The position numbers and the translations under genes are program-made. From Nitrospirae bacterium CG2_30_53_67 (GTDB lineage Bacteria > CG2-30-53-67), in NCBI GenBank assembly GCA_001873285.1, contig MNYV01000104.1, positions 1 through 44,024 on the forward strand: a stretch of DNA of 44,024 nucleotides, read 5' to 3'. Positions 19,404 to 38,350 of the stretch are shown here, piece after piece. The notes below the pieces were generated by a model, which had not been told where the DNA came from, did no database searches, and saw only the letters and a program-made list of their open reading frames with translations. Numbering within the stretch: position 1 is the first letter of the stretch; every line of letters starts with the position of its first letter.

Positions 19404-19576
19404 CCATTCAAACGCCTTGAACGCTTTGAACCTTTCCCCTTTATGGTTTTTCTCCCATTTAGTGAGTAAAAAGGGTTACGCTTCACGTGCACCGCTTTTC
19501 TCTATTTTTGTCGTTAGATCCCGGCATCTCCTTGAATCTATTCTTGCCGGGCCGGGACCGTCTGCGACGGATACTA

Positions 19577-19736
19577 CACTGAGGTATCTTGGGGTCGAGG
19601 ATTCAAGGGGTCAAGGGGTCAAGTGAAATACTGAAACGCAAGCAAAATCTCCAGAGAAAAACACTGGAACCCTTGAACCCTATGACCCTCGGCCCCTTAT
19701 GTTTTTAGCATTTCACTTGACCCCTGAAACCCTTAT
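19577..19736 (-). repeat. 160 bp octamer-based MITE-like repeat, copy 1
   Basis: Reverse complement of 35859-36018 with 9 mismatches by my count. Built from AGGGGTCA-type 8-mers with internal inverted repeat GGGGTCAAGTGAAAT...ATTTCACTTGACCCC. Confidence 0.9.
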
Positions 19737-19771
19737 GTTTTCACTCACTATTTTGGAGATGATCCTCTATA

Positions 19772-26171: not shown

Positions 26172-26326
26172 GGGAAATGGTTCGATCGAAGGGGTCTGCG
26201 ACAAGACTGATGGTTCTTTGCCTGGGAAATCCAGATAATTTTTCTTGATACTTTATCCCTGCTGAGGTAGGATTGCTCATCCTTTCGTGGGCGGACGTGT
26301 GCATAAAGCGAACGCTGGACTTAGGT

Positions 26327-26509
26327 ATGAAATACATAAACGGACAGAAGGAATTTGTTGTTCTGTCTTGGGATGATTACATGAGGATTCAAGAAATGCT
26401 TGAGGATTATGAAGATTTGAAGGAGCTCAGAAGAGCGAAGGAAGAAGCCAAGGGACAAAAGTCCATCGCCTTTGAAAAGGCGGTCAAATCTCTGAAGCTA
26501 AAGAAATAG
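26327..26509 (+). CDS. Small type II antitoxin-like protein, orphan and possibly 5' truncated
   Basis: GQKEFVVLSWDDY..IQEMLEDYEDLKELRRAKEE pattern typical of Phd/RelB-like antitoxins. No toxin adjacent. Confidence 0.6.
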   Translation: MKYINGQKEFVVLSWDDYMRIQEMLEDYEDLKELRRAKEEAKGQKSIAFEKAVKSLKLKK

Positions 26510-26578
26510 GCTGAGCACCGCGCTGCACCTGCCCTGTGGGTTCGTTTTGCATCCCGCAGGGGAGCGATGACGTTGTGA
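26510..26578 (+). other. Degenerate integron attC-like site
   Basis: GCTGAGC-5 bp-GCTGCACC ... GGGGAGC-6 bp-GTTGTGA spacing with an extrahelical G, directly after the antitoxin stop. Confidence 0.5.
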
Positions 26579-26849
26579 TTGAAGAACAAGTGGAATATGG
26601 AAACTGCCCAGAGGGGGCTCATGAGAAAGAACGCGTGGAGAGAGAACAAGCGTAATTGGTATTTGAAGATGACCCTCGGAAGTTTCCTTGGACTTAAACT
26701 TTTTACTACCGACGGTCACTATCGGAACATACCCAAGATTATCGTCCACTGGTGCAACCCGTTAGAGCGCCCTCCGTGTCCCGTCTTCACTATGTTTCGA
26801 AGCACTCAAGTTCATCAAATGCAAACAAAATAGACCCTCGTCGGCTCCC

Positions 26850-26921
26850 CACATCGCCGTGCTGCGCGGTACCGACGTGAACCAGCCCAGGAACATGGCC
26901 AAGAGCGTGATCGTGGAGTGA
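26850..26921 (+). pseudogene. glmS: Isolated glmS 3'-end fragment (attTn7-like TnsD recognition region)
   Basis: Encodes [23 protein letters not shown], versus native [23 protein letters not shown] (37790-37861). 58/72 nt identical. Confidence 0.92.
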
Positions 26922-26943
26922 TTATTCCGCCTCAAAGATCTCA

Positions 26944-27026
26944 TGTTTCTGTAAAATAGAGTCGTATACTGGAAAATACTGACTACTATACCTGGTGAAT
27001 AACGTTGGAAACTCATCAGAAATCAG
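26944..27026 (+). mobile_element. Tn7 right-end-like sequence (relic)
   Basis: TGT terminus 22 nt after the glmS-fragment stop. 8 bp end followed by TAAAATAGAGTCGTATACTGGA, 16/22 matches to the Tn7R TnsB site as I recall it (GACAATAAAGTCTTAAACTGAA). Further similar sites near 26972 and 26995. Confidence 0.6.
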
Positions 27027-27040
27027 GATTCTCTTATCTT

Positions 27041-29032
27041 TTACTTCGTAGCACACCCTGGCCTGGTGCACATCGTGACCAGCTTACGGGCATCCAAGGC
27101 CGTAATCATGCCGTCCCCATCAAGATCTCTCGGGTCATTAGACCCATTTGCGGGCTGATTTCTTGCTGCAAGGATTATATTCAGGTCATTTCGGTCCACA
27201 TCGCCGTCTTTGTCCAGATCTCCTGGAAGCACCGTAACAGTTACGGATGCCGTGGCAATTGCTGACAAGCCGCCATTGTCTGTTACTCGCAACCCCACGG
27301 TTCCACTGAACTCCACGTGCCATGTGTGAGTTATTGTGTCTGATGTGGTACTCTCATCATAGGTTCCATCATGATCCCAATCCCATTCGTAGGAAACTAT
27401 CGCACCATCCGAATCATAGGAGCCACTGGCATTAAAGGTGATAGGTAAGCCAACGGTGCTATTGTATGGCCCGTTAGCGTCGGCAACAGGCGGCTGGCTC
27501 GCACCTTCAAAATCACGAAATAAATAGGGTTGTGTGGTATATACCGTGTTTGCAACCAACGACTTATTTCCTCTCCAGATTAACAGATTTCTCACATAAT
27601 AGGGGCCGTCAACAGCATTCATTCCTATCATCTTCCCGTCAAAAGTCATTGCAATTCTGTTATTCCCCACACTCATCAAGTTTGCTCCAGAGATAAATTC
27701 TATCTCTTTGCTGTTCTTATCTACCAACCGAGCGCTCCATTGATAAGTGCCTGCTTCAAGCATGGCGACTTCAATCGATACAACAAGAGTATCGAATTTA
27801 CCGTTGTTATCTGTATCGTAGGCTGCATCCGAATTGTTTCCGGTTAACGCTATCTGCATTTGCTCGAACTTGCTTAAGGAATAAGCCTGGGTTTGCCATT
27901 GATTCACTGTTTTATCCGCCAGATACCATTCATTATTTTCCAATAATTGAATCAGTGCTTTAGTAACGGTATAAGGCCCATCAACGCCGATTGCATAGAC
28001 ATCTTCTTTGAAAAAGTTGATCGGAATTAATTGATTGGCTCCTTGGGTCAAGTCCAGTATTGAGCTGACAGTTCTTGAAACGTTATTGCTTCCCTCCAAA
28101 GTGAGCGAGATTTTGTATTTCCCAGATGTATACACATCGATTCCCAAATTCAAAACAATGTATTCATAAAAGCCGTTTGCATTCGCATCGATTCCTTGAT
28201 CATTGAAAGAACCATTAAAATCGGCCAAAGGAGACCGCACACCGAAAGAAGAAAAGACGTCTCGACTAAACGGTGTGCCGCTCCCGGTTACTCCATTTAC
28301 TTCTGCCATAACTGCATAGTCGCCTGGGTTTGTTGGTATATAGCCTCCTGAATACATGCCATCTCCGGCCATGTGATCTGGACTGTTGCCGTCATCACTT
28401 AGAATGATCTTGTCTTCCCCACCAGATGTGAGGTTCTTCAGAGTGGCAAGGGCAGAGGCGCCAGTTATGGGACTAGAGCCATCGAAAACAGTTGCCATTA
28501 TTAGAACCGGGGCATTCACAATGTATTGAGTTTCATTAGTGAGCAGTCCAACCTTTAACCTGTTTTGAGCAATAATGTTTACCAACGCCACTTCTCCAGC
28601 AGCCGGAAGATTAATACCGTTAATTTTGACTTTCCAGCTCCCGGAAGGCGGAGTCTGGAAAGAATAGGTGTAATGATATCCCCCTAAGAAAAGGGGATTG
28701 CCCAACGAGAGTGCGGATGTCTGAAGTGTGTATGAATTATAGGCCCCGTTAAAGTTTCCAACATTGCTTGGGGTAATTGTCTGTCCATCAGGGGCAACGA
28801 GCGTAACAGAAAATAAGTCTGAAGGACTGGCGACATCAACCAACAGAGATGGGCTGACGTCAACCTCAAAGGGAATCTCGGCCGCAGGATTTCCCGGATC
28901 AAGAAAAATTGGAGTCACACGGTAAGAAGATAATGGAACTTTCTCCGCAACGGCTTTTGAATTGATCGTGATGACTGACAAAAATATTGCCAAATAAAAG
29001 ATCCTCCCCAATGCTCTCATATTGGTTAACAT
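27041..29032 (-). CDS. Secreted multi-Ig/beta-sandwich protein with choice-of-anchor X-like domain, PKD domain and C-terminal dockerin
   Basis: Signal peptide; LSDDGNSPDHMAGDGMYSG; two D.D.NG.(F/Y) repeats; PPVADANGPY...SYEWDWD..G PKD domain; GDLDKDGDVDRNDL and DLDGDGMITALDA dockerin calcium loops. Confidence 0.85.
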   Translation of the reverse strand: MLTNMRALGRIFYLAIFLSVITINSKAVAEKVPLSSYRVTPIFLDPGNPAAEIPFEVDVSPSLLVDVASPSDLFSVTLVAPDGQTITPSNVGNFNGAYNSYTLQTSALSLGNPLFLGGYHYTYSFQTPPSGSWKVKINGINLPAAGEVALVNIIAQNRLKVGLLTNETQYIVNAPVLIMATVFDGSSPITGASALATLKNLTSGGEDKIILSDDGNSPDHMAGDGMYSGGYIPTNPGDYAVMAEVNGVTGSGTPFSRDVFSSFGVRSPLADFNGSFNDQGIDANANGFYEYIVLNLGIDVYTSGKYKISLTLEGSNNVSRTVSSILDLTQGANQLIPINFFKEDVYAIGVDGPYTVTKALIQLLENNEWYLADKTVNQWQTQAYSLSKFEQMQIALTGNNSDAAYDTDNNGKFDTLVVSIEVAMLEAGTYQWSARLVDKNSKEIEFISGANLMSVGNNRIAMTFDGKMIGMNAVDGPYYVRNLLIWRGNKSLVANTVYTTQPYLFRDFEGASQPPVADANGPYNSTVGLPITFNASGSYDSDGAIVSYEWDWDHDGTYDESTTSDTITHTWHVEFSGTVGLRVTDNGGLSAIATASVTVTVLPGDLDKDGDVDRNDLNIILAARNQPANGSNDPRDLDGDGMITALDARKLVTMCTRPGCATK

Positions 29033-29050
29033 CGCGTCCCTCCAATCCGT

Positions 29051-29764
29051 TTAATAGTTGATAGTCATTAAAGATTTGTCGTATTCATTGGAAAATATCA
29101 TCAGTCTCCGATCTTCCAGCCAGAACAACAGCTGCGGCCAGTAGCCATTCGAAAATGAAAGTCTCTTGGTCAGAAACAATCGTTCCCTTGTCTTGAGGTT
29201 AAATATCTCAAAACAATTCATTCCCATTTTGCGGGTTGAACCAGCAATCCAGCCAATCCCTCGTCCTCTCTTGTAATAACCTGAAAGACTATAAACATAC
29301 ATGTGCTGGCCAGAGGGACTGATGGAGTATTCAAGAATATGTTTCCCGAAAGGCTTTATAATCTGCTTGGTGTAGATATTCTTGAGATCTCCATTATCTT
29401 CGAGAAAATCTCCTGTCTTATGGTATGTAGCCTCAACTGCCGTTTCATGCTGAGCCTTGTTCCAATCTTCTTCGGAAGCAGCGTTGACTTTCAGGTTCTG
29501 GATATCAAGCAAAAAGGGCTTATTCTCTCGGCCTCTTTTTAAATACAGTTTGTCAGGTGAACCCTTCATGCTTCTTAGATAATAGAAAGCATCAGACATG
29601 AGCTGCTCAGTATCGATCACCCCGTTCTTATATAGATTCTCTATTGAAACCTCTCTAATTTCAGCACCCGCTGTCAACGGTGCTCTCAATATAAAAGAAG
29701 TCAACGTTACTAACAAAACAGGGCCTGAAAAAACCAGAAAATCTGTTCTTTTTCTATTGAGCAT
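29051..29764 (-). CDS. Hypothetical exported protein (beta-rich)
   Basis: 237 aa ORF with N-terminal hydrophobic segment, overlapping the lipase stop by 11 bp and in operon orientation. Confidence 0.7.
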   Translation of the reverse strand: MLNRKRTDFLVFSGPVLLVTLTSFILRAPLTAGAEIREVSIENLYKNGVIDTEQLMSDAFYYLRSMKGSPDKLYLKRGRENKPFLLDIQNLKVNAASEEDWNKAQHETAVEATYHKTGDFLEDNGDLKNIYTKQIIKPFGKHILEYSISPSGQHMYVYSLSGYYKRGRGIGWIAGSTRKMGMNCFEIFNLKTRERLFLTKRLSFSNGYWPQLLFWLEDRRLMIFSNEYDKSLMTINY

Positions 29765-31310
29765 ATTTTAAAAACCTTATAACAGAGAGCGCCACTTCAC
29801 CATCCGCAACAGAAGCGTGGTTTTTGCTGAACTGTCCGATGAAGCTGAAGTTAAAGCTTGCACTGTTTATAGTGACCATCATGTCGTTTTCCTGAAAAAT
29901 TGATGTGGGTGTTTCAACGACCTCCCATATGGGAGTGTAAAACGGCCATCCACTGTCTTGACCCGTTGGCCTAACCGTAACTGAAGAGAAATTTCCTAAT
30001 GCCTGGTACATAGCGTTCATAGGTCCGTTCGCTATGCTATCCCAGAGATTCGGATGTCCGGCTTCATCCAGCATTTCCTGATATTCATTCCTTTCAAGTG
30101 TTCCATTGTCATTAATGTCAGCATCGGCACCAACAGAGTAATATTGAATGTTGCTGGGCAAATGATTGGTTACATTGAACCCTGCAGTCCACGTTGTTGT
30201 AAGGTTGAGATTCGCATTGAATTGATTCTGCGTGTAACTTCCGCTTAACCAGCTGGCCATTTTCGTTAGTGCATTTGGGTTATTCAGTCTGAAATTGCTA
30301 GTTAGCTCTACCGCTCTAATATAATCGGCACCTACGGAGCCTCGATGGGGAGTGCTTAAAGTTATAAAATTATTAACGCTTAGCATCTTGTTTTGCTCCA
30401 ACAAGGGGTAATGAGAGTCAAGAAATTCGCGAGTATCAAGCCCCCCTTTGCTGTGGGCTACGATCTGAATATTCTGGACACCGAATCTTCTGGCAGTCGC
30501 CATTAGTTCATTCGCAAGAGTCGCACCGTTGTTGGTTACTGTGTCTGTTGGAAGGTTAATACTATTATCGTACGGAATATGATGATTCATCAGTACCTGC
30601 GTGAATCCCCGTCTGTCCCAGAAACCTCCATCAGAGTTATTTCCATGAATTAAAACAAGGGGAGGCATTGCATCAAGAGAAAGCTCCGCCCAATCTACTG
30701 CTACAGCCCAAAATTCACTAGTCCCATATTTTGGAATGTAATTCCCAATATTGTCTTGATCAATATAAATCGTGATCCGATTCTTTGCCGGCACAGGAGT
30801 GCCCGTCGGGCTTGTAACTCTAGCAGGAAATTTTACATAATCAATGGGAATCGTAAATTCGTTCTGTTTCCATGTATTGTCGTCGCCTTGCAGGTAAAAT
30901 GGAGAAATATCGTAGCCATTAAAATAGATGCGGTCTCTTTCCGGCTTCACACCGTCTGCAATGAGTTGCGTTCTTCCAGATAGGTCATAATCTACGTCCC
31001 AGACAGGCATTCGTAATTTCGCCGTCCCGGAGACAACTCCATCTATAATCAGATCTCCAGAATTAATGAGATATCCTTCTGAGTCTACCTCTCCGACGTA
31101 ACGAGTGACTTCTATATCGAATTCAATTGGTCCACCGCTGCGAAACAGGTATGTGTCCAATTTTGCCGCGGTATCAATCACAAATGTGGTGTCTGATGCT
31201 TCGGGGGGATCAAACGGAGATGACCCATTATGAGCCGCAAACACAGATGAAGGAAATAAAAGTATTATTATGAGTGATAGACAAGACAAAACATGAGATT
31301 TCTTTCTCAT
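29754..31310 (-). CDS. Secreted alpha/beta-hydrolase (lipase/esterase) with N-terminal accessory domain
   Basis: Signal peptide; PLVLIHG, AHSKGG nucleophile elbow, ITLSTPHRGS, NDMMV Asp and terminal His (KNH). Confidence 0.85.
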   Translation of the reverse strand: MRKKSHVLSCLSLIIILLFPSSVFAAHNGSSPFDPPEASDTTFVIDTAAKLDTYLFRSGGPIEFDIEVTRYVGEVDSEGYLINSGDLIIDGVVSGTAKLRMPVWDVDYDLSGRTQLIADGVKPERDRIYFNGYDISPFYLQGDDNTWKQNEFTIPIDYVKFPARVTSPTGTPVPAKNRITIYIDQDNIGNYIPKYGTSEFWAVAVDWAELSLDAMPPLVLIHGNNSDGGFWDRRGFTQVLMNHHIPYDNSINLPTDTVTNNGATLANELMATARRFGVQNIQIVAHSKGGLDTREFLDSHYPLLEQNKMLSVNNFITLSTPHRGSVGADYIRAVELTSNFRLNNPNALTKMASWLSGSYTQNQFNANLNLTTTWTAGFNVTNHLPSNIQYYSVGADADINDNGTLERNEYQEMLDEAGHPNLWDSIANGPMNAMYQALGNFSSVTVRPTGQDSGWPFYTPIWEVVETPTSIFQENDMMVTINSASFNFSFIGQFSKNHASVADGEVALSVIRFLKYAQ

Positions 31311-31346
31311 TACAATCCCTCCTTTTTGTGCGGTACATTTCCCGGT

Positions 31347-31793
31347 CTATTTCAGCGTCTCGTTCAGAATTATTTCGTTTTGTCTCGTATTTCCTTGTTC
31401 GTCCACAAATTCAACATGCCATATAAAGCCAAAGGAATCCTTTTGGTTTTCTATAGGAACTGAAACAGTGAAAGAATCTAGACTTTGCTCAGTAGCATAG
31501 GGACCCATTGATTTGATTGTGACCTCTGAATCCATAATAGAAAGTTTATCAGAGGCAGATCTGATGAAGGCCCGGATGTTTGTAAGTGTTTCCCCGGTCT
31601 TGTTCTGGATAATTAATTGGATTGTGCGAGTAATTTGAGATGCACTGGTGTTTGTGGCTGTAGTTACATAGTCTGAAATAGATAGTTCCTTCATTGAAGA
31701 AAGCTCGAGTATCCGAGAAGATGCTCCAGAAGTGAGAGAGAGAAAGAAACAAAAGAAACTTAAGACAACCAATCTATTCTTGAGACTCTTCAT
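31347..31793 (-). CDS. Small secreted beta-sandwich hypothetical protein
   Basis: Signal peptide and strong RBS AAGGAGGGG; IQNKTGETLTNI Ig-like pattern. Confidence 0.7.
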   Translation of the reverse strand: MKSLKNRLVVLSFFCFFLSLTSGASSRILELSSMKELSISDYVTTATNTSASQITRTIQLIIQNKTGETLTNIRAFIRSASDKLSIMDSEVTIKSMGPYATEQSLDSFTVSVPIENQKDSFGFIWHVEFVDEQGNTRQNEIILNETLK

Positions 31794-32166
31794 AGTGATT
31801 CCCCTCCTTGTCCGGTAAACGTGCTGTAAGTCGTTAACCCTTAGTTCGTCTCTTTACAATGACCCAAGTGCTTGATACATGGATCAAACCTGGGTCCAAT
31901 AATTTTTCACCGCTCCTTCATGGTAAAACTTTAAGAAAACCGTAGCCATTATTCTTAAAACTCTCTCCTGGCAACAAGAAGCGAAATTATACGGAAGGCC
32001 CCTCGCTCCACTTGTGGTGCACTGACTGGCGGCCTAAATGATCTGTCCAGTTCTCGCTCCTATCATTTGTCCCCACGAGAAATGCAAAAGAAGTTCGTAG
32101 CGGGGTGGTTCTTAATCAAAAATTTGGAAAATTTGCCTAAGCTAATAAAGGCAGAACGCGAAACAA

Positions 32167-32194
32167 CAGGGGCGTAAGCAAAAACTACGCCCTG
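32167..32194 (-). terminator. Hairpin downstream of the cohesin PEP-CTERM gene
   Basis: Minus strand AGGGCGTAG-TTTTTG-CTTACGCCCCT followed by GTTGTTT. Confidence 0.45.
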
Positions 32195-32262
32195 CAAGCG
32201 TATACTTAAGTATTCTGTACTGATGAATAATCTCAGAGCGTGTAATCTTTACCCTCCGGAAA

Positions 32263-32853
32263 TTATTTCCTTTGGCGAAAATATCCCATTCCAGCCAAAC
32301 TGCTTATGGCGAGCAGTATGGCTGTAGAAGGCTCCGGAACCGGAGCGACACTGGCATTTTGGATGTTAGCACTCAGAGCGTTCCCGGCTGAATCTCCCAA
32401 GGCGTTGATGGTCAAACTAAGAGAACTCGTTCCTGTGGTGAGGGTATCAAAGGTCAAAGTAGCCAAAGTGAAGCTGTCCGCCTGAAACAGATCGAGATCC
32501 CCCGGCATATCAAGGGATAGTTCAAAGAGATTTAGAACTCCAGGAACAGAGTCATCAACACTTGTAATGCTACCGAGGCCAAAAAGATCCAATTGATCTC
32601 CCAATCCCGGATCGCCAAAGGTTGCGTTGTTGAAGTACAATATAGTTGAATCAAAGAGGATATTCAGATCAAATGTACCAAGAGACGGGGGTGTGCCATT
32701 ACCAAGACCTGAGACATATAGATCTACACTCACAGGATTTCCCACAGGCACTGTTTGAAATGATGGAGTTAAACCAACCGTAAAGGCGTGTAAATTCGAA
32801 TAAGGAAGTAATAGAAAAAACAACGCAATAACTACCATTACCAGTCTTCTCAT
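32263..32853 (-). CDS. Cohesin-domain PEP-CTERM surface protein
   Basis: Signal peptide; V.VG.PVSVDL.V...LGTFDL.I.FD...L and FTLATLTF....GTS.L.L cohesin-like pattern; VPEPSTAILL..GYFRQRK. Start ATG 32853 with GGAGG RBS. Confidence 0.88.
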   Translation of the reverse strand: MRRLVMVVIALFFLLLPYSNLHAFTVGLTPSFQTVPVGNPVSVDLYVSGLGNGTPPSLGTFDLNILFDSTILYFNNATFGDPGLGDQLDLFGLGSITSVDDSVPGVLNLFELSLDMPGDLDLFQADSFTLATLTFDTLTTGTSSLSLTINALGDSAGNALSANIQNASVAPVPEPSTAILLAISSLAGMGYFRQRK

Positions 32854-32971
32854 TGTCTCCCTCCATTTCAGCAATGTTTAAGCATTTATTGTTTGCTCGA
32901 AAAAAAATGTAATGAACTCAAATGGATATATTTCAAGGAGCATGACGCTTTTTTAATCTATAATTTCATCA

Positions 32972-32987
32972 AGCAATTATTATGCCA
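32972..32987 (-). promoter_or_regulatory. sigma54 (-24/-12) promoter
   Basis: Minus strand TGGCATAATAATTGCT (GG-N10-GC) upstream of the PEP-CTERM gene. Confidence 0.8.
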
Positions 32988-33016
32988 TAGCCTTATACTA
33001 ACCAGAACATTTGTTG

Positions 33017-33029
33017 TAACATATTGATT
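33017..33029 (-). promoter_or_regulatory. IHF-like binding site
   Basis: AATCAATATGTTA matches WATCAANNNNTTR; lies between the putative enhancer and the sigma54 promoter. Confidence 0.55.
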
Positions 33030-33097
33030 CTTAGTAAGATAAATATAGCTTTTAAACATAATATATCTTAGTGGCAAGAGAACTTTGTCTTCTATAG

Positions 33098-33270
33098 TGT
33101 AAAAAATCTCGACAGTATTATTCCCATCCCCACCCCTAAGTATTAAAAATATCAGTAAATTCGAACAGTTAGCCATATAAAGATTTTCGACACAAATTAT
33201 TCCCATTCCTACCCCTAAGATTAAAAATGTAATTAGATTCAAACAGTTAGTCATGTAAAGATTTTCGACG
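33098..33270. repeat. 78 bp tandem repeat (2.2 units) carrying three putative enhancer boxes
   Basis: TGTAAAAAATCTCGACA (33098), TATAAAGATTTTCGACA (33176) and TGTAAAGATTTTCGACG (33254), exactly 78 bp apart. Confidence 0.8.
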
Positions 33271-33395
33271 CCATTCAAAAATGCATTCCTTCAAATATGG
33301 GGCACATCCTCTTAAGACCTTGGTTCATTGCAAGAACCTATCAATCCGGAGGGATGGCCGCTTCAAATACAGGCAGAGGGTCAAAGCCTCCCGAT

Positions 33396-33736
33396 GTAGA
33401 GTAGAGAGTTGGTTGCTGCCGCTAGGCTGGGCCTATCTGTCGCCGCTCCTTTCGTCTCGTATAAGAGATCAGAACAATATTTTAATTCTCATGGGGGGAC
33501 GCCTCCGATAGACTTAGATAGGGTACAACCATATCCGAGAAAGGAGGCGCACCCCATGAGACTTAAAGATTATGCCAGAGACCAGAAGAAACGTAAAAAA
33601 TTCGTTCAGCAGCCGGAATTGCTGATGATCGGAGTCGATATGAGCAAAGCCAAGCACGGTGCATCAATAGCCTCGCCGTGGTCGCCTTGGCTAGCCCTTC
33701 CTCAACCATGCGTGAGGTTTTCCCCGCATGCGGTTC
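33396..33736 (-). mobile_element. Group II intron 3' relic (domain V and interrupted domain VI)
   Basis: DV-like GAACCGCATGCGGGGAAAACCTCACGCATGGTT (33736-33704). DVI start ...GGCTATTGATGCACCG; DVI end GACGAAAGGAGCGGCGACAGATAGGCC...CTACTCTAC (33456-33396). Confidence 0.8.
33457..33660 (+). pseudogene. IS110-family left end and transposase N-terminal fragment
   Basis: ATG 33556: MRLKDYARDQKKRKKFVQQPELLMIGVDMSKAKH (IGVD.SK..H RuvC-like first motif). RBS and start lie within an inverted repeat (33487-33506 with 33543-33561). Confidence 0.7.
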
Positions 33737-33748
33737 GTCAGAAAAACC

Positions 33749-33777
33749 TTGCAAATATCAGGCGCTCTCCCTATAAT
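33749..33777 (+). promoter_or_regulatory. sigma70 promoter for DUF502-glmU-glmS
   Basis: TTGCAA-17 bp-TATAAT. Confidence 0.75.
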
Positions 33778-33810
33778 TGATCTAAAAAATCATCGTGTTC
33801 AGGGCCTGAA

Positions 33811-34446: not shown

Positions 34447-35862
34447 GTGGAAGAGTCCCGTCAAGAAAAAAACCCCTGTTCGGTCATCATCCTGGCTGCC
34501 GGGCTGGGCACGAGGATGAAGTCGGAACGGGTGAAGGTTTTACATCCCCTCCTGGGAAGGCCCATGATTTTTTTTGCTGCGGACCTGTCCCTTAAGATCG
34601 GCGCCGAAAAAACCGTCCTGGTGGTGGGCCATCAGGCCGAAGAGGTGCAGAAGGCCTTGGCGGGGAAGCCCGTGGAGTTCGCCCTTCAGAAGGCGCAGAT
34701 GGGCACAGGCCACGCGGTCCAGCAGGCCATGCCTCATCTTCAGGAGAGCCGAGGGGCCGTCCTGGTCCTCTGCGGCGACGTCCCTATGCTGAGACCGGAA
34801 ACCCTCCATGACCTGATCAGACACCATGACGAAACCAGCGCCGCGGTGACGCTTCTCACCACCCATCTCCCTTCACCTGCCGGATACGGCCGTATCGTCC
34901 GATCCCACTCGGGGAACATCCTGAAGATCGTTGAGGAAAAGGACGCCACGGAGCAGCAAAAAGCCATCCGGGAGATCAACACGGGAATCTACTGCTTTGA
35001 CGCCGGGTTTCTCCGAACCTCCATCGCCTCTCTGACCAACCGCAACGTTCAGCACGAATACTACCTCACCGACTTGATCGAGATCGCCCAGTATGAACAC
35101 AAGCAGGTTTCGGGCCTGACATGCCCGGACCCCGACGAGGTCATGGGGATCAACTCCAGGGACCAGATGGCCGAGGCCGAGGCCATCCTGAGAAAACGGA
35201 TCAACCTCCGTCATATGAGGGACGGTGTCACCCTGCTCGATCCCTCCCGGACCTATATCGGGATGAACGTCGCCATCGGCCCTGACACCACCCTCTACCC
35301 CGGCTGCTATCTTGAAGGAAAAACCCGCATCGGATCCGGATGCGTGATCGGGCCCAATACCCGGATCGTCAACTGCGAGATCGGAAACCAGGTCGAGATC
35401 CGTGGGTTTTGCTTTTTGACCGGGTCCAGGGTGTGGGACCGGGCGGTCCTCGGTCCCTTCTCGCACCTCCGTCCCGGAACCGAGATCCATGAGGCGGCCC
35501 ACATCGGAAACTTTGTCGAGGTCAAGAACTCCGTCATCGGGGCCGGATCCAAGGTCAATCACCTCTCCTATATCGGGGACACGGAGATGGGAGAGGGAGT
35601 CAACATCGGGGCCGGGACCATCACCTGCAATTATGACGGCATCCACAAGCACAAGACCGTGATCGGGAATCAGGTTTTCGTGGGAAGCGATACCCAGTTC
35701 GTGGCCCCGGTCAGGATCGGGGACCGCTCCATGATCGGGGCCGGCTCCACCATCACCCGGGATGTGCCCGAAGACGCCCTGGGCTTAAGCCGAGTGGAAC
35801 AGAAAAACGTGGAGCAGGGGGCGAAGAAGCTCTTTGACCGCCTGCGAAACAAGAAAAAATAA
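34447..35862 (+). CDS. glmU: Bifunctional UDP-GlcNAc pyrophosphorylase / GlcN-1-P acetyltransferase
   Basis: LAAGLGTRMKS, EYYLTD, GNFVEVK, HLSYIGD and NIGAGTITCNYDG. Confidence 0.97.
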   Translation: MEESRQEKNPCSVIILAAGLGTRMKSERVKVLHPLLGRPMIFFAADLSLKIGAEKTVLVVGHQAEEVQKALAGKPVEFALQKAQMGTGHAVQQAMPHLQESRGAVLVLCGDVPMLRPETLHDLIRHHDETSAAVTLLTTHLPSPAGYGRIVRSHSGNILKIVEEKDATEQQKAIREINTGIYCFDAGFLRTSIASLTNRNVQHEYYLTDLIEIAQYEHKQVSGLTCPDPDEVMGINSRDQMAEAEAILRKRINLRHMRDGVTLLDPSRTYIGMNVAIGPDTTLYPGCYLEGKTRIGSGCVIGPNTRIVNCEIGNQVEIRGFCFLTGSRVWDRAVLGPFSHLRPGTEIHEAAHIGNFVEVKNSVIGAGSKVNHLSYIGDTEMGEGVNIGAGTITCNYDGIHKHKTVIGNQVFVGSDTQFVAPVRIGDRSMIGAGSTITRDVPEDALGLSRVEQKNVEQGAKKLFDRLRNKKK

Positions 35863-36018
35863 GGATTCAAGGGGTCAAGTGAAATGCTAAAAACATAAGG
35901 GATCGAGGGTCATAGGGTTCAAGGGTCCCAGTGTTTTTCTCTGGAGATTTTGCTTATGTTTCAGTATTTCACTTGACCCCTTGACCCCTTGAATCCTCGA
36001 CCCCAAGATTCCTCAGTG
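35859..36018 (+). repeat. 160 bp octamer-based MITE-like repeat, copy 2
   Basis: About 94% identical to 19577-19736 (inverted). Fills the glmU-glmS intergenic region and overlaps the glmU TAA. Confidence 0.9.
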
Positions 36019-36028
36019 GAGTTTAATT

Positions 36029-37861
36029 ATGTGCGGTATCATGGGATATATCGGAGAACAGGATGTGATTACGGTGATTGTGGACGGCCTGAAACGGCTT
36101 GAATACCGGGGTTACGATTCCGCCGGCATCGCCTATCTCAAGAACGGAGAGATCCAGGTCAGGCGCTCAGAGGGGAAGCTCCGCAACCTGGAATCCCTGC
36201 TCCGGGGCGAATCCACGGACAGCGGGATCGGTATCGGCCACACACGGTGGGCCACCCACGGGAGACCCTCGGAGGAGAACGCCCATCCCCACCGCTCGGG
36301 GGATACCGTCATCGTCCACAACGGGATCATCGAAAATTATCTCCCGCTCAAGAAGGCCCTGATTGAAGAAGGGGTCGCCTTTACGTCGGAAACCGACACC
36401 GAGGTCATGGCCCATCTGATCGAGAAGAGCCTGAAAGAGCAGGGCGGGGACCTGGTCAAGGCCGTCCGGTCCGCCCTGAAGAAAGTATCGGGGGCCTTTG
36501 CGCTCGGCATCATGAACAAAAATGATCCGGACAAGATCATCGCCGTGAAGATGGCGAGCCCCCTGGTCCTCGGACTGGGAAGCGGGGAGAATTTCCTGGC
36601 CTCGGACATCCCGGCCATCCTGAACCACACCCGGAAGGTCATCTTCCTCGATGACGGCGAGATGGCGGTCCTGACGCGGGAAGGCGTGACCGTCACCACT
36701 CTGGAAGGGAAACCTGTAGACAAGGAAATCCAGCATATCACCTGGAGCGCGGTCATGGCGGAAAAGGGGGGCTACAAGCACTTCATGCAGAAGGAGATCT
36801 TCGAACAGCCCCGGGCCATCCTCGACACCTTCCGAGGGAGGATCGGGAGGGAATCGGGAGAGGTTTTTTTCGAACAGTTTGATATCAGCCCGGAAGAGGC
36901 AAAGAAGATCCGGAAGATTGTGATGATCGCCTGCGGCACCTCCTACCATGCGGCCCTGGTCGGAAAATTCATGGTCGAAGAGATGGCGAGGATCCCCGTA
37001 GAGGTGGACATCGCCTCGGAATTCCGGTATCGTGACCCCCTGGTGGATGAAAAGACCCTGCTCGTCTGCATCTCCCAGTCCGGGGAGACCGCGGACACGC
37101 TTGCGGCCCTCCGGGAGGCCAAGGCCAAGGGGGCCAGGACCCTCGGGATCTGCAATGTCCTGGGGAGTTCCATCACCCGGGAGGCGGAATGGGTCCTGTA
37201 CACCCACGCAGGCCCGGAGATCGGCGTGGCCTCGACCAAGGCGTTTACCACACAGCTTGTGGCCCTCTACCTCTTCTCCCTATATCTCGCGAGAACCCTG
37301 GACAGAATCTCTGCCGCTGATTCGGTGTCTCTCATGGAGGATCTGACCCATCTTCCCCATCAGGTGGAAAAGGTCCTGGAAGCGGAGGATACGATCCGGA
37401 ACCTGGCCGGAATCTATGCGGACCGCACGGACTTCCTCTACCTGGGCCGTGGGATCCACTACCCCATCGCCCTGGAAGGGGCCTTGAAACTCAAGGAGAT
37501 CTCCTACATCCATGCCGAAGGCTACCCCGCAGGCGAGATGAAGCACGGGCCCATCGCCCTGATCGACGAGAAGATGCCGGTGGTCTGCCTCCTCCCCAGG
37601 GACAAGGTCTTTGAAAAGGCCCTCGGGAATATCGAGGAGGTCAAGGCAAGAAGCGGGATCGTCATCGCCCTGGTCACGGGAAAGGAGCCCGAAGTCCGGC
37701 AAAAGGCCGATCATGTCATCGAGGTCCCGAACTCCAACCATTACCTCACGCCGGTCCTCATGACCGTACCCTTACAGCTCCTCGCCTATCACATCGCCGT
37801 GCTCCGCGGCACGGATGTGGACCAGCCCAGAAATTTAGCCAAATCCGTGACCGTGGAATGA
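36029..37861 (+). CDS. glmS: Glutamine--fructose-6-phosphate transaminase (isomerizing)
   Basis: [32 protein letters not shown] and [11 protein letters not shown]. Confidence 0.98.
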
Positions 37862-37921
37862 TGCCGCACGTTTAAGGAGAGACTTGCCCGAGATTTCGGA
37901 AAAGCGGGCTCACCAAGAGCA

Positions 37922-38350
37922 TCAGGGATTCTGATTATTGATCCTGTTTTGCTCTCTGATGGCCCGGTTGGCCAAGGAGTCCGCCTCGGCATTCTTTTCC
38001 CTGGGAACGTGGAAAATCTCCACCTGTTCAAAACCGTGAATGAGTTGAAGGGCCTGATCGTAGAGTATTTTCAGGTGCGGTTTTTTTACCTGGTAGCGCC
38101 CGTTCATCTGGCGGACCAAAAGTTCGGAGTCCGATGCGATCCGGACCCTCAGCGCCCCCTGTTCCCGGGCTATTTCCAGCCCCTCGATCAAGGCTGTGTA
38201 TTCGGCCGTATTGTTTGTGGTCTCGCCGATATAGCGGAAGCGTTCAAAGAGCGTGGCGCCCCCCGGGTCCTTGCCGATCAGGCCGATGGCCGCCGGCCCG
38301 GGGTTCCCCTTGGCCGCCCCGTCGATATGAATCAGAATCTCTTTCGTCAA
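37922..38350 (-). CDS. rnhA: Ribonuclease HI
   Basis: DGAAKGNPG, TNNTAEY, DSEL and HVPREKNAEADSLAN. TTG start. Confidence 0.92.
   Translation of the reverse strand: MTKEILIHIDGAAKGNPGPAAIGLIGKDPGGATLFERFRYIGETTNNTAEYTALIEGLEIAREQGALRVRIASDSELLVRQMNGRYQVKKPHLKILYDQALQLIHGFEQVEIFHVPREKNAEADSLANRAIREQNRINNQNP

Follow-up and report, generated by a model that had tools for sequence, protein, structure and literature searches.

The terminus of Tn7-like elements is 8 bp long and in most cases ends in TGT, and the end proximal to their attachment site carries closely packed 22-bp TnsB sites, as set out in PMC11406308. In Acinetobacter baumannii, 54 of 203 closed genomes are reported to hold a Tn7-like insertion downstream of glmS but only 21 of the 203 one that is predicted to be functional, so that decayed Tn7-like remains are common (PMC11014353). 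As a reference we used contig C23 of genome G236, which holds a genuine glmS-inserted Tn7-like element with TnsA, TniQ and tnsA–tnsB–tnsC-like open frames in a row. The TGT of this element lies 26 nt past the glmS stop and is followed by two repeats of ~17 nt that stand ~21 nt apart, and its tnsA starts 113 nt past the same stop. Here we analyse a locus in which a detached glmS 3′ end is followed by a TGT and three direct repeats, and which an earlier note had read either as a fossil attTn7 junction or as a retained decoy for Tn7-like elements.

Genomic context and the 7.2-kb insertion

The window, meaning the whole stretch of DNA that was analysed, is the complete contig C144 of 44,024 bases, which belongs to a 183-contig, 2.37-Mb metagenome-assembled genome that is 95% complete. 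The features that frame the locus are the following.

26528–33721: 7.2-kb insertion between tmk and DUF502–glmU–glmS, delimited by alignment with the sister species G001
27041–31310, minus strand: cargo cassette of three genes, assigned by Pfam matches
27041–29032, minus strand: PKD-domain protein (Pfam)
29051–29764, minus strand: 237-aa protein, a member of the cassette
29754–31310, minus strand: DUF676/DUF7379 esterase-like protein (Pfam)
36029–37861, plus strand: native full-length glmS, 610 aa by translation
37862–37921: unoccupied position 3′ of the native glmS, 60 nt up to the end of a convergent RNase H gene (37922–38350)

The native glmS is preceded by DUF502 and then glmU (Pfam), encodes the canonical C-terminal end and shares 92% DNA identity with glmS of the sister species. 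The earlier description of the native attTn7 as empty holds, in that the stop of the RNase H gene is reached 60 nt past the glmS stop with nothing inserted between the two.

Across the family, metG–PSP1–holB–tmk faces DUF502–glmU–glmS (genomes G003, G005 and G007), and the spacer between tmk and DUF502 measures 82 bp in G003, ~1.4 kb in G005 and ~300 bp in G007. The alignment with the sister species breaks off at 26527 and starts again at 33722, and between the two points G001 has 786 bp of unrelated sequence. The tmk–DUF502 spacer is therefore variable, and 26528–33721 is an insertion specific to this species. Most of it is set apart by base composition, with a drop in GC from about 0.57 to about 0.42 at the insertion and values of 0.38–0.46 from ~27,000 to 33,500 as against 0.53–0.60 in the flanks. 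In addition to the cassette, the island encodes a 148-aa protein and a PEP-CTERM protein, both on the minus strand, and the Pfam scan found no integrase gene in it. A remnant of an IS110-type transposase at 33556–33780, suggested by eye, was dropped after Pfam, genome and protein database searches had given no confirmation.

Relatives of the island are few. A first scan of genome contigs returned none, and a profile scan returned only distant relatives of the PKD protein, at 24–36% identity. Beyond four contigs from the same population, the metagenome protein search returned a single relative (L065), 63% identical, which has 71% DNA identity to 27489–31325 and carries the same three genes in the same order. 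There the cassette adjoins IS630- and IS4-type transposases together with housekeeping genes, and neither glmS nor Tn7 genes are present. Because the cassette travels with such transposases in L065, we regard the island as a mosaic and not simply as the cargo of one old transposon.

An assembly of 183 contigs and a sharp change of GC at the site could suggest that the junction is a chimera of the metagenome-assembled genome, a reading to which we give next to no weight. Four other metagenome contigs (L061–L064) span the junctions in the same arrangement with at least 99.9% identity; three of them (L062–L064) carry 26528–27040 letter for letter, and the remaining one (L061) begins at 26606 and shows no difference from that point on. 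An assembly artefact is excluded by this shared arrangement. Comparison of L063 with the window gave 16 differing sites in 21,989, 14 of which fall inside the native glmS at 37408–37630, a clustering which indicates that foreign glmS DNA recombines into this population.

Orphan glmS tail

The second glmS sequence and the DNA that follows it lie at the left edge of the insertion and comprise these features.

26850–26921, plus strand: orphan glmS 3′ end of 23 codons and a TGA stop (26919–26921), foreign to the genus and decaying
26886–26921, plus strand: 36-nt equivalent of the TnsD site, numbered with the help of E. coli glmS (NZ_CP018948.1) and Table 1 of PMC2918618
26922–26943, plus strand: 22-nt spacer from the stop to the TGT, read directly
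26944–27003, plus strand: candidate relic of a Tn7-like right end, which starts with TGT and holds three direct 10-nt cores

A repeat finder reported 26850–26922 and 37790–37862 as a direct repeat on the same strand with 81% identity. Over the coding part, 58 of 72 bases are shared with the native tail (37790–37861), and the 14 differences consist of nine at third positions, two that make up a synonymous switch of a serine codon (AGC/TCC) and three that change residues (D>N, L>M and T>I). The 72-nt tail, the 58 matches, the predominance of synonymous differences and the three amino-acid changes are thus all present in the sequence, as the earlier note had claimed. When native GlmS was compared by tblastn with the whole 2.37-Mb assembly, only the full gene and a 25-residue piece (26844–26918, E 4e-6) were found, and there was no glmS body upstream of the orphan tail. 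A functional glmS would have an open frame of ~610 aa with the invariant C-terminus; the orphan encodes 23–25 residues, and three invariant ones are altered.

We aligned the orphan with nine real GlmS tails, the native one and those of eight other genomes. The same C-terminal residues are encoded by all nine, and each of the three residue changes in the orphan lies at a position that is invariant among them. The serine codon separates the sequences differently: AGC is found in the orphan, in G003, G005 and G007 and in more distant genomes, as against TCC in the native glmS and TCT in the sister species, the two codons of this genus. The orphan therefore did not split from the glmS of this genus after the serine switch. 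Together with the mostly synonymous differences, this bears out the claim that the tail derives from a different, once-functional glmS, and a foreign, once-working gene is a supported origin for it. Changes at about 9 of 24 third positions against three non-synonymous ones indicate that the orphan spent most of its divergence time in a working glmS and has since acquired a small number of changes incompatible with a working gene, a pattern that looks like neutral decay.

The earlier note had proposed to find the donor by a search with the fragment. Run over 400 other genomes, the 72-nt query gave best matches of 82–84% in the same family (G003, G001 and G005) and in unrelated families (G092, G072 and G389) alike, and these matches name no donor. 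Searches for RNA families and terminators around the tail returned nothing relevant.

To place the tail on the attTn7 numbering, the end of E. coli glmS was taken from NZ_CP018948.1 and anchored on four base identities given in Table 1 of PMC2918618. Two offsets fit these bases, and we chose the sole one that puts all tested positions on non-wobble bases, in keeping with PMC2918618. With this offset, the stop codon falls at +23 to +25, the TnsD site (+23 to +58) corresponds to the stop and 11 codons, and the E. coli Tn7 end begins 25 nt past the glmS stop. The 36-bp equivalent in the orphan carries two substitutions, those behind T>I at +33 and L>M at +49. Position +33 is one of seven at which substitution reduced TnsD binding at least five-fold in E. 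coli (PMC2918618); the substitutions in that work were transversions and the change in the orphan is a transition, so that the size of its effect on TnsD binding is judged here by extension.

Sequence after the stop codon

The similarity between the orphan and the native gene ends at the stop codon, and the 22-nt spacer resembles neither the DNA after the native glmS nor that after glmS of the relatives. The TGT follows at 26944–26946, 22 nt past the stop, and behind it the 10-nt cores CTGTAAAATA, CTGGAAAATA and CTGGTGAATA start at 26949, 26969 and 26992, at spacings of 20 and 23 nt. Both the TGT at this distance and the spaced repeats had been claimed before and are found as described. The distance is 3–4 nt shorter than in both references (25 nt in the E. 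coli numbering and 26 nt in G236). If this were a Tn7-type insertion, the last five nucleotides of the spacer (26939–26943) would be one copy of the target duplication.

The repeats were assessed with a score for triple repeats at 18–26 nt spacing, compared with 1000 shuffles and 1000 random windows of the island; the score was devised post hoc, with the motif already seen. In this post hoc test a triple as good as the observed one occurred in none of 1000 shuffles and none of 1000 island windows at k=10, and in 3 of 1000 and 5 of 1000, respectively, at k=12. The score of 24 also compares with 14–23 in 55 distinct glmS-downstream regions of other genomes, so that the array exceeds all 2055 controls, again post hoc. 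The one true end among the controls, that of G236, scored only 21 and tied for second place among the 55 regions, and the statistic is therefore of modest power. Similarly, a TGT at 19–27 nt past the stop is present in 7 of the 55 regions, one of which is the true element, which makes the position of the TGT weak evidence when taken alone. A TGT at 19–27 nt combined with a score of at least 21 was found, among the 55 regions, in the true Tn7-like element only. The motif has 41 single matches in the genome and forms a cluster only once, after the orphan tail. As the test was post hoc and the true control reached 21, the repeats give moderate support for a right end and do not prove one. We infer that they were TnsB-binding sites.

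The proposal that this sequence resembles a Tn7 end stood in part: TGT, spacing and packed repeats all agree with it, and the end sequence itself turned up no relative. The 119 nt after the stop returned only short matches at chance level in 400 other genomes, the best of them in G073, inside an open frame read as a sigma factor, and the cores resemble neither the G236 end nor anything in the 400 genomes.

Searches for the rest of an element

A fuzzy search that allowed up to four mismatches found no inverted 12-, 16- or 20-nt terminus in the window or the island region, and the 2.37-Mb assembly holds no second cluster of the motif. In the Pfam scan of the 38 open frames of the window there was no tnsA, tnsB, tnsC, tniQ or tnsD, and neither TniQ (PF06527) nor the Mu-transposase C domain (PF09299) had a match in the 95%-complete genome. 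Decayed tns genes were sought by tblastn with seven open frames of the G236 element, which gave nothing in the window (all E >0.9) or in the genome. The earlier statement that no tns genes or matching left end were found agrees with the profile, tblastn and inverted-terminus searches alike. TnsA-N (PF08722) had one weak match in the genome (27 bits), at the C-terminus of an open frame at the start of contig C109; we set it aside as an unrelated open frame, which adjoins a sulfate adenylyltransferase-like gene by our by-eye reading and, by the same kind of reading, may be nuclease-like. PF05621 (TniB) was useless as a marker, as it matches 13 of 14 control genomes.

Beyond this genome, no tns genes were found behind glmS of G001, G003 and G005. 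TnsA-N and TniQ were found in none of the 14 species genomes of the phylum that were searched, which are 84–100% complete, so that absence is not proven; the TniQ search recovered all three of three genomes that carry TnsA. The locus is thus no transposon, and it is consistent with the relic of one end.

Other orphan glmS tails

A survey of isolated glmS tails near a native glmS, which the earlier note had suggested as a check on the decoy idea, was made with the last 39 GlmS residues as query in 400 other genomes. At least two matches were present in 21 of the 400, and one of these genomes, G332, has a verified orphan; the other multi-match genomes owed their matches to full-length paralogues, other SIS-domain proteins and genes cut by contig ends. 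The survey therefore yielded a single case, without signs of Tn7. In G332 the orphan tail shares the strand of that genome's own glmS, lies 1.46 kb downstream of it and borders a PemK/MazF cassette. There the duplicated stretch continues beyond the stop codon, and the orphan has no transposon end next to it.

Discussion

The reading towards which we lean, with limited confidence, takes the feature as the fossil of a right-end junction between glmS and a Tn7-like element, situated at the edge of a mosaic island. A Tn7-like element would have inserted, right end first, ~22 bp downstream of a working glmS in another organism or lineage. The junction would then have been severed from the glmS body on one side and would have lost the interior of the transposon, with its tns genes and left end, on the other. 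What remained would be the last 23 glmS codons, the 22-nt spacer and ~60 nt of transposon end, which would now form the left part of the mosaic, low-GC 7.2-kb insertion in the spacer between tmk and DUF502–glmU–glmS. Such a relic would have no function of its own today and would be in neutral decay. In favour of this first proposal of the earlier note are the geometry and the packed repeats; left end, tns genes and relatives of the end are missing, which leaves it the best-supported reading and an unproven one. The same missing parts speak for an origin of the tail in an event unrelated to Tn7, which we regard as unlikely but well short of far-fetched. The tail would then be a scrap of foreign glmS brought in by illegitimate recombination, or one half of an att-type duplication at the glmS 3′ end, and the TGT and three repeats would be a coincidence or binding sites of another kind. 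G332 shows that an orphan glmS tail can occur without any sign of Tn7, a TGT at such a distance is present in 7 of the 55 control regions, and recombination of foreign glmS DNA into the population is indicated by L063, with 14 of its 16 differences in the native glmS. That origin has to contend, however, with an island that has no integrase, with a tail that lies upstream of the native glmS where an att duplication would leave its copy downstream, with a similarity that stops at the stop codon, unlike that in G332, and with a triple repeat which, behind a TGT at the canonical distance, beat all 2055 controls.

The decoy proposal fares worse. It holds that the cassette is kept as a protein-free device, in which the tail draws TnsD-type proteins and the TnsB sites immunise the native site 11 kb away, and we consider it very improbable. 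That ends resident in the target confer immunity, even when they are immobile and have mutated termini, is described as established in PMC11014353 and PMC11406308, and the native glmS site is empty, as such a device would have it. However, all three residue changes hit bases that coding constraint holds fixed in genuine glmS tails, and one of them is the equivalent of +33, where substitution costs TnsD at least five-fold in binding. The cassette is absent from the sister species, a second glmS tail occurs in none of the 13 other genomes of the phylum (by a protein query that had no match whatsoever in 2 of the 13), and the only orphan among the 400 other genomes stands without a transposon end. 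Nor is there an attacker, with TnsA and TniQ found in none of the 14 phylum genomes, and the native sites of G001, G003 and G005 are likewise without tns genes although no decoy is present there. Changed invariant positions, an altered +33, the lack of recurrence and the lack of TnsA and TniQ in the phylum thus all went against a retained decoy. The relic would probably discourage a cognate element through target immunity, and nothing suggests that it was selected for this. It is improbable, though a little less so, that the relic is an accidental and unselected decoy: the foreign tail would have arrived first, acted as an ectopic attachment site and taken up, instead of the native glmS 11 kb away, a Tn7-like element 22 bp downstream of itself, and what is left of the right end could still make the native site immune to cognate elements.

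For the fossil junction, two routes to the present spot can be envisaged: import as a finished junction, or insertion of a Tn7-like element beside a glmS tail that was already here. Placed at random in 2.37 Mb, it would fall within 11 kb of the native glmS with a chance of ~1%, by a rough estimate, so its closeness to that gene calls for some link. Either the tmk–DUF502 spacer is a hot spot whose position next to glmUS is fortuitous, or the glmS region took part in the event. In the latter case one may speculate that a circular or tandem donor piece with the order glmS tail–island–DUF502–glmU–glmS recombined with the native glmUS region, and that subsequent deletion of the duplicated gene copy gave the observed order and orientation.

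If the fossil reading is true, a glmS::Tn7-like junction has outlived both its partners in a small and little-sampled phylum, and this lineage has received either such elements or the DNA of hosts in which they resided. It would also mean that an attachment-site junction can come to lie away from its gene, which matters for the automated annotation of attachment sites and islands. No new mechanism is opened by the locus, the decoy idea being unsupported by conservation, recurrence or the presence of an attacker.

Comparison with known systems

The closest described arrangement is Tn7 at attTn7, with which the locus shares the last glmS codons that form the TnsD site, a fixed short spacer, the TGT and packed direct repeats, as well as, in the candidate relic, an att-proximal end that points to glmS. 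Unlike Tn7 at that site, it lacks a glmS body, tnsABCD(E), a left end and a verifiable 5-bp duplication, its repeat cores measure only 10 nt, and the junction lies away from the glmS of the host. Target immunity of Tn7, in which TnsB sites near a target discourage new insertions (as described in PMC11014353 and PMC11406308), is what a decoy would require; it needs TnsB and TnsC of an incoming cognate element, and none is known for the array described here.

G332, an example of a 3′-end target-site duplication, is similar in having an orphan glmS tail near the native glmS on the same strand. Its orphan, however, lies downstream, with a duplication that extends past the stop and an insert that is a toxin–antitoxin cassette of 1.46 kb, whereas here the orphan lies upstream, the similarity ends at the stop and an array of a TGT and repeats follows. 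Searches of the literature, on incomplete or isolated pieces of glmS and a second attTn7 and on decayed Tn7-like remains and immunity, gave no description of such an orphan junction. The decayed insertions of A. baumannii, as reported in PMC11014353, correspond to our preferred reading in being non-functional remains of glmS-targeted elements, but they sit behind the working glmS of their host, whereas the junction here is detached, has a foreign tail and is found 9 kb upstream of the native gene. Decayed remains of Tn7-like elements behind glmS are therefore already known, and what is unusual here is the detachment from a working glmS and the phylum of the host.

DNA directly downstream of glmS

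The sequence immediately 3′ of glmS was different in each of four family genomes (the window from 37862, compared with loci L012, L016 and L017). In these four genomes, the point at which synteny breaks behind glmS is the exact insertion position of Tn7-type elements. The following genes occupy this side of glmS:

Window, 37862 onward: RNase H gene
G001 (sister species): 120-aa open frame and Usp gene
G003 (same family): SocA/Panacea antitoxin gene
G005 (same family): NIR_SIR genes

The contig of a further same-family genome, G007, stops 180 nt past the glmS stop (G007:C39:1-180, locus L109); these 180 nt contain two copies of GGGCTATTGT, and a TGT lies 26 nt downstream of the stop. A search of the G007 genome found neither TnsA nor TniQ.

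Variation inside the native glmS

Comparison of the window with L063, a metagenome contig of the same population, revealed 16 differences in 21,989 bases, the two being otherwise near-identical. Fourteen of these fall in 223 bp of the native glmS (37408-37630), a cluster that looks as if a divergent allele had been recombined into this tract.

Borders of the island and repeats

Two features lie at the left border of the island:

26273-26509, + strand: small open frame (78 aa) with weak RelB/Phd-type antitoxin matches
26653-26680: short motif (25–28 nt), 96–100% identical to two places in G001 (L103 and L104)

The small open frame is conserved in G001 and ends 18 nt before the island starts; it overlaps the tmk open frame in the latter's long 5′ extension. 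Its antitoxin-type matches (E values of 1.8e-4 and 2.8e-3) both fall short of Pfam's cut-offs, and there is no obvious gene for a partner toxin. The two G001 copies of the motif match each other over 43 nt. At one place the motif sits ~25 nt upstream of the ATG of an open frame, and so a role as promoter or leader element is possible.

Repeats were present both in the AT-rich, seemingly non-coding right portion of the island and outside it:

33117-33191 and 33196-33269: two direct copies of a ~75–79-nt unit, 87% identical to each other
35853-36022: palindromic repeat (~144–170 nt), between glmU and glmS
19573-19742: inverted copy of the palindromic repeat, between a histidine kinase gene and tatD

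The direct units bear no likeness to the repeats beside the orphan glmS tail. The two palindromic copies are 93.5% identical in opposite orientation, and BLAST against the window's own genome returned 226 segments of this family across many contigs; on this sequence evidence, the repeat is therefore a high-copy MITE- or REP-like element. It matched no Rfam family, the sole match being a chance one to mir-335 (E = 0.033).

A second orphan glmS tail

One of the 400 other genomes surveyed, G332, also carries an orphan tail:

G332:C50:3450-3527 (locus L166), same strand as the native glmS: orphan glmS tail

This tail lies 1.46 kb downstream of that genome's native glmS, with a PemK/MazF toxin–antitoxin cassette between the two tail copies, and the duplication continues ~25 nt beyond the stop. 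Judged by sequence, the G332 copies look like an att-type duplication rather than a Tn7 insertion.
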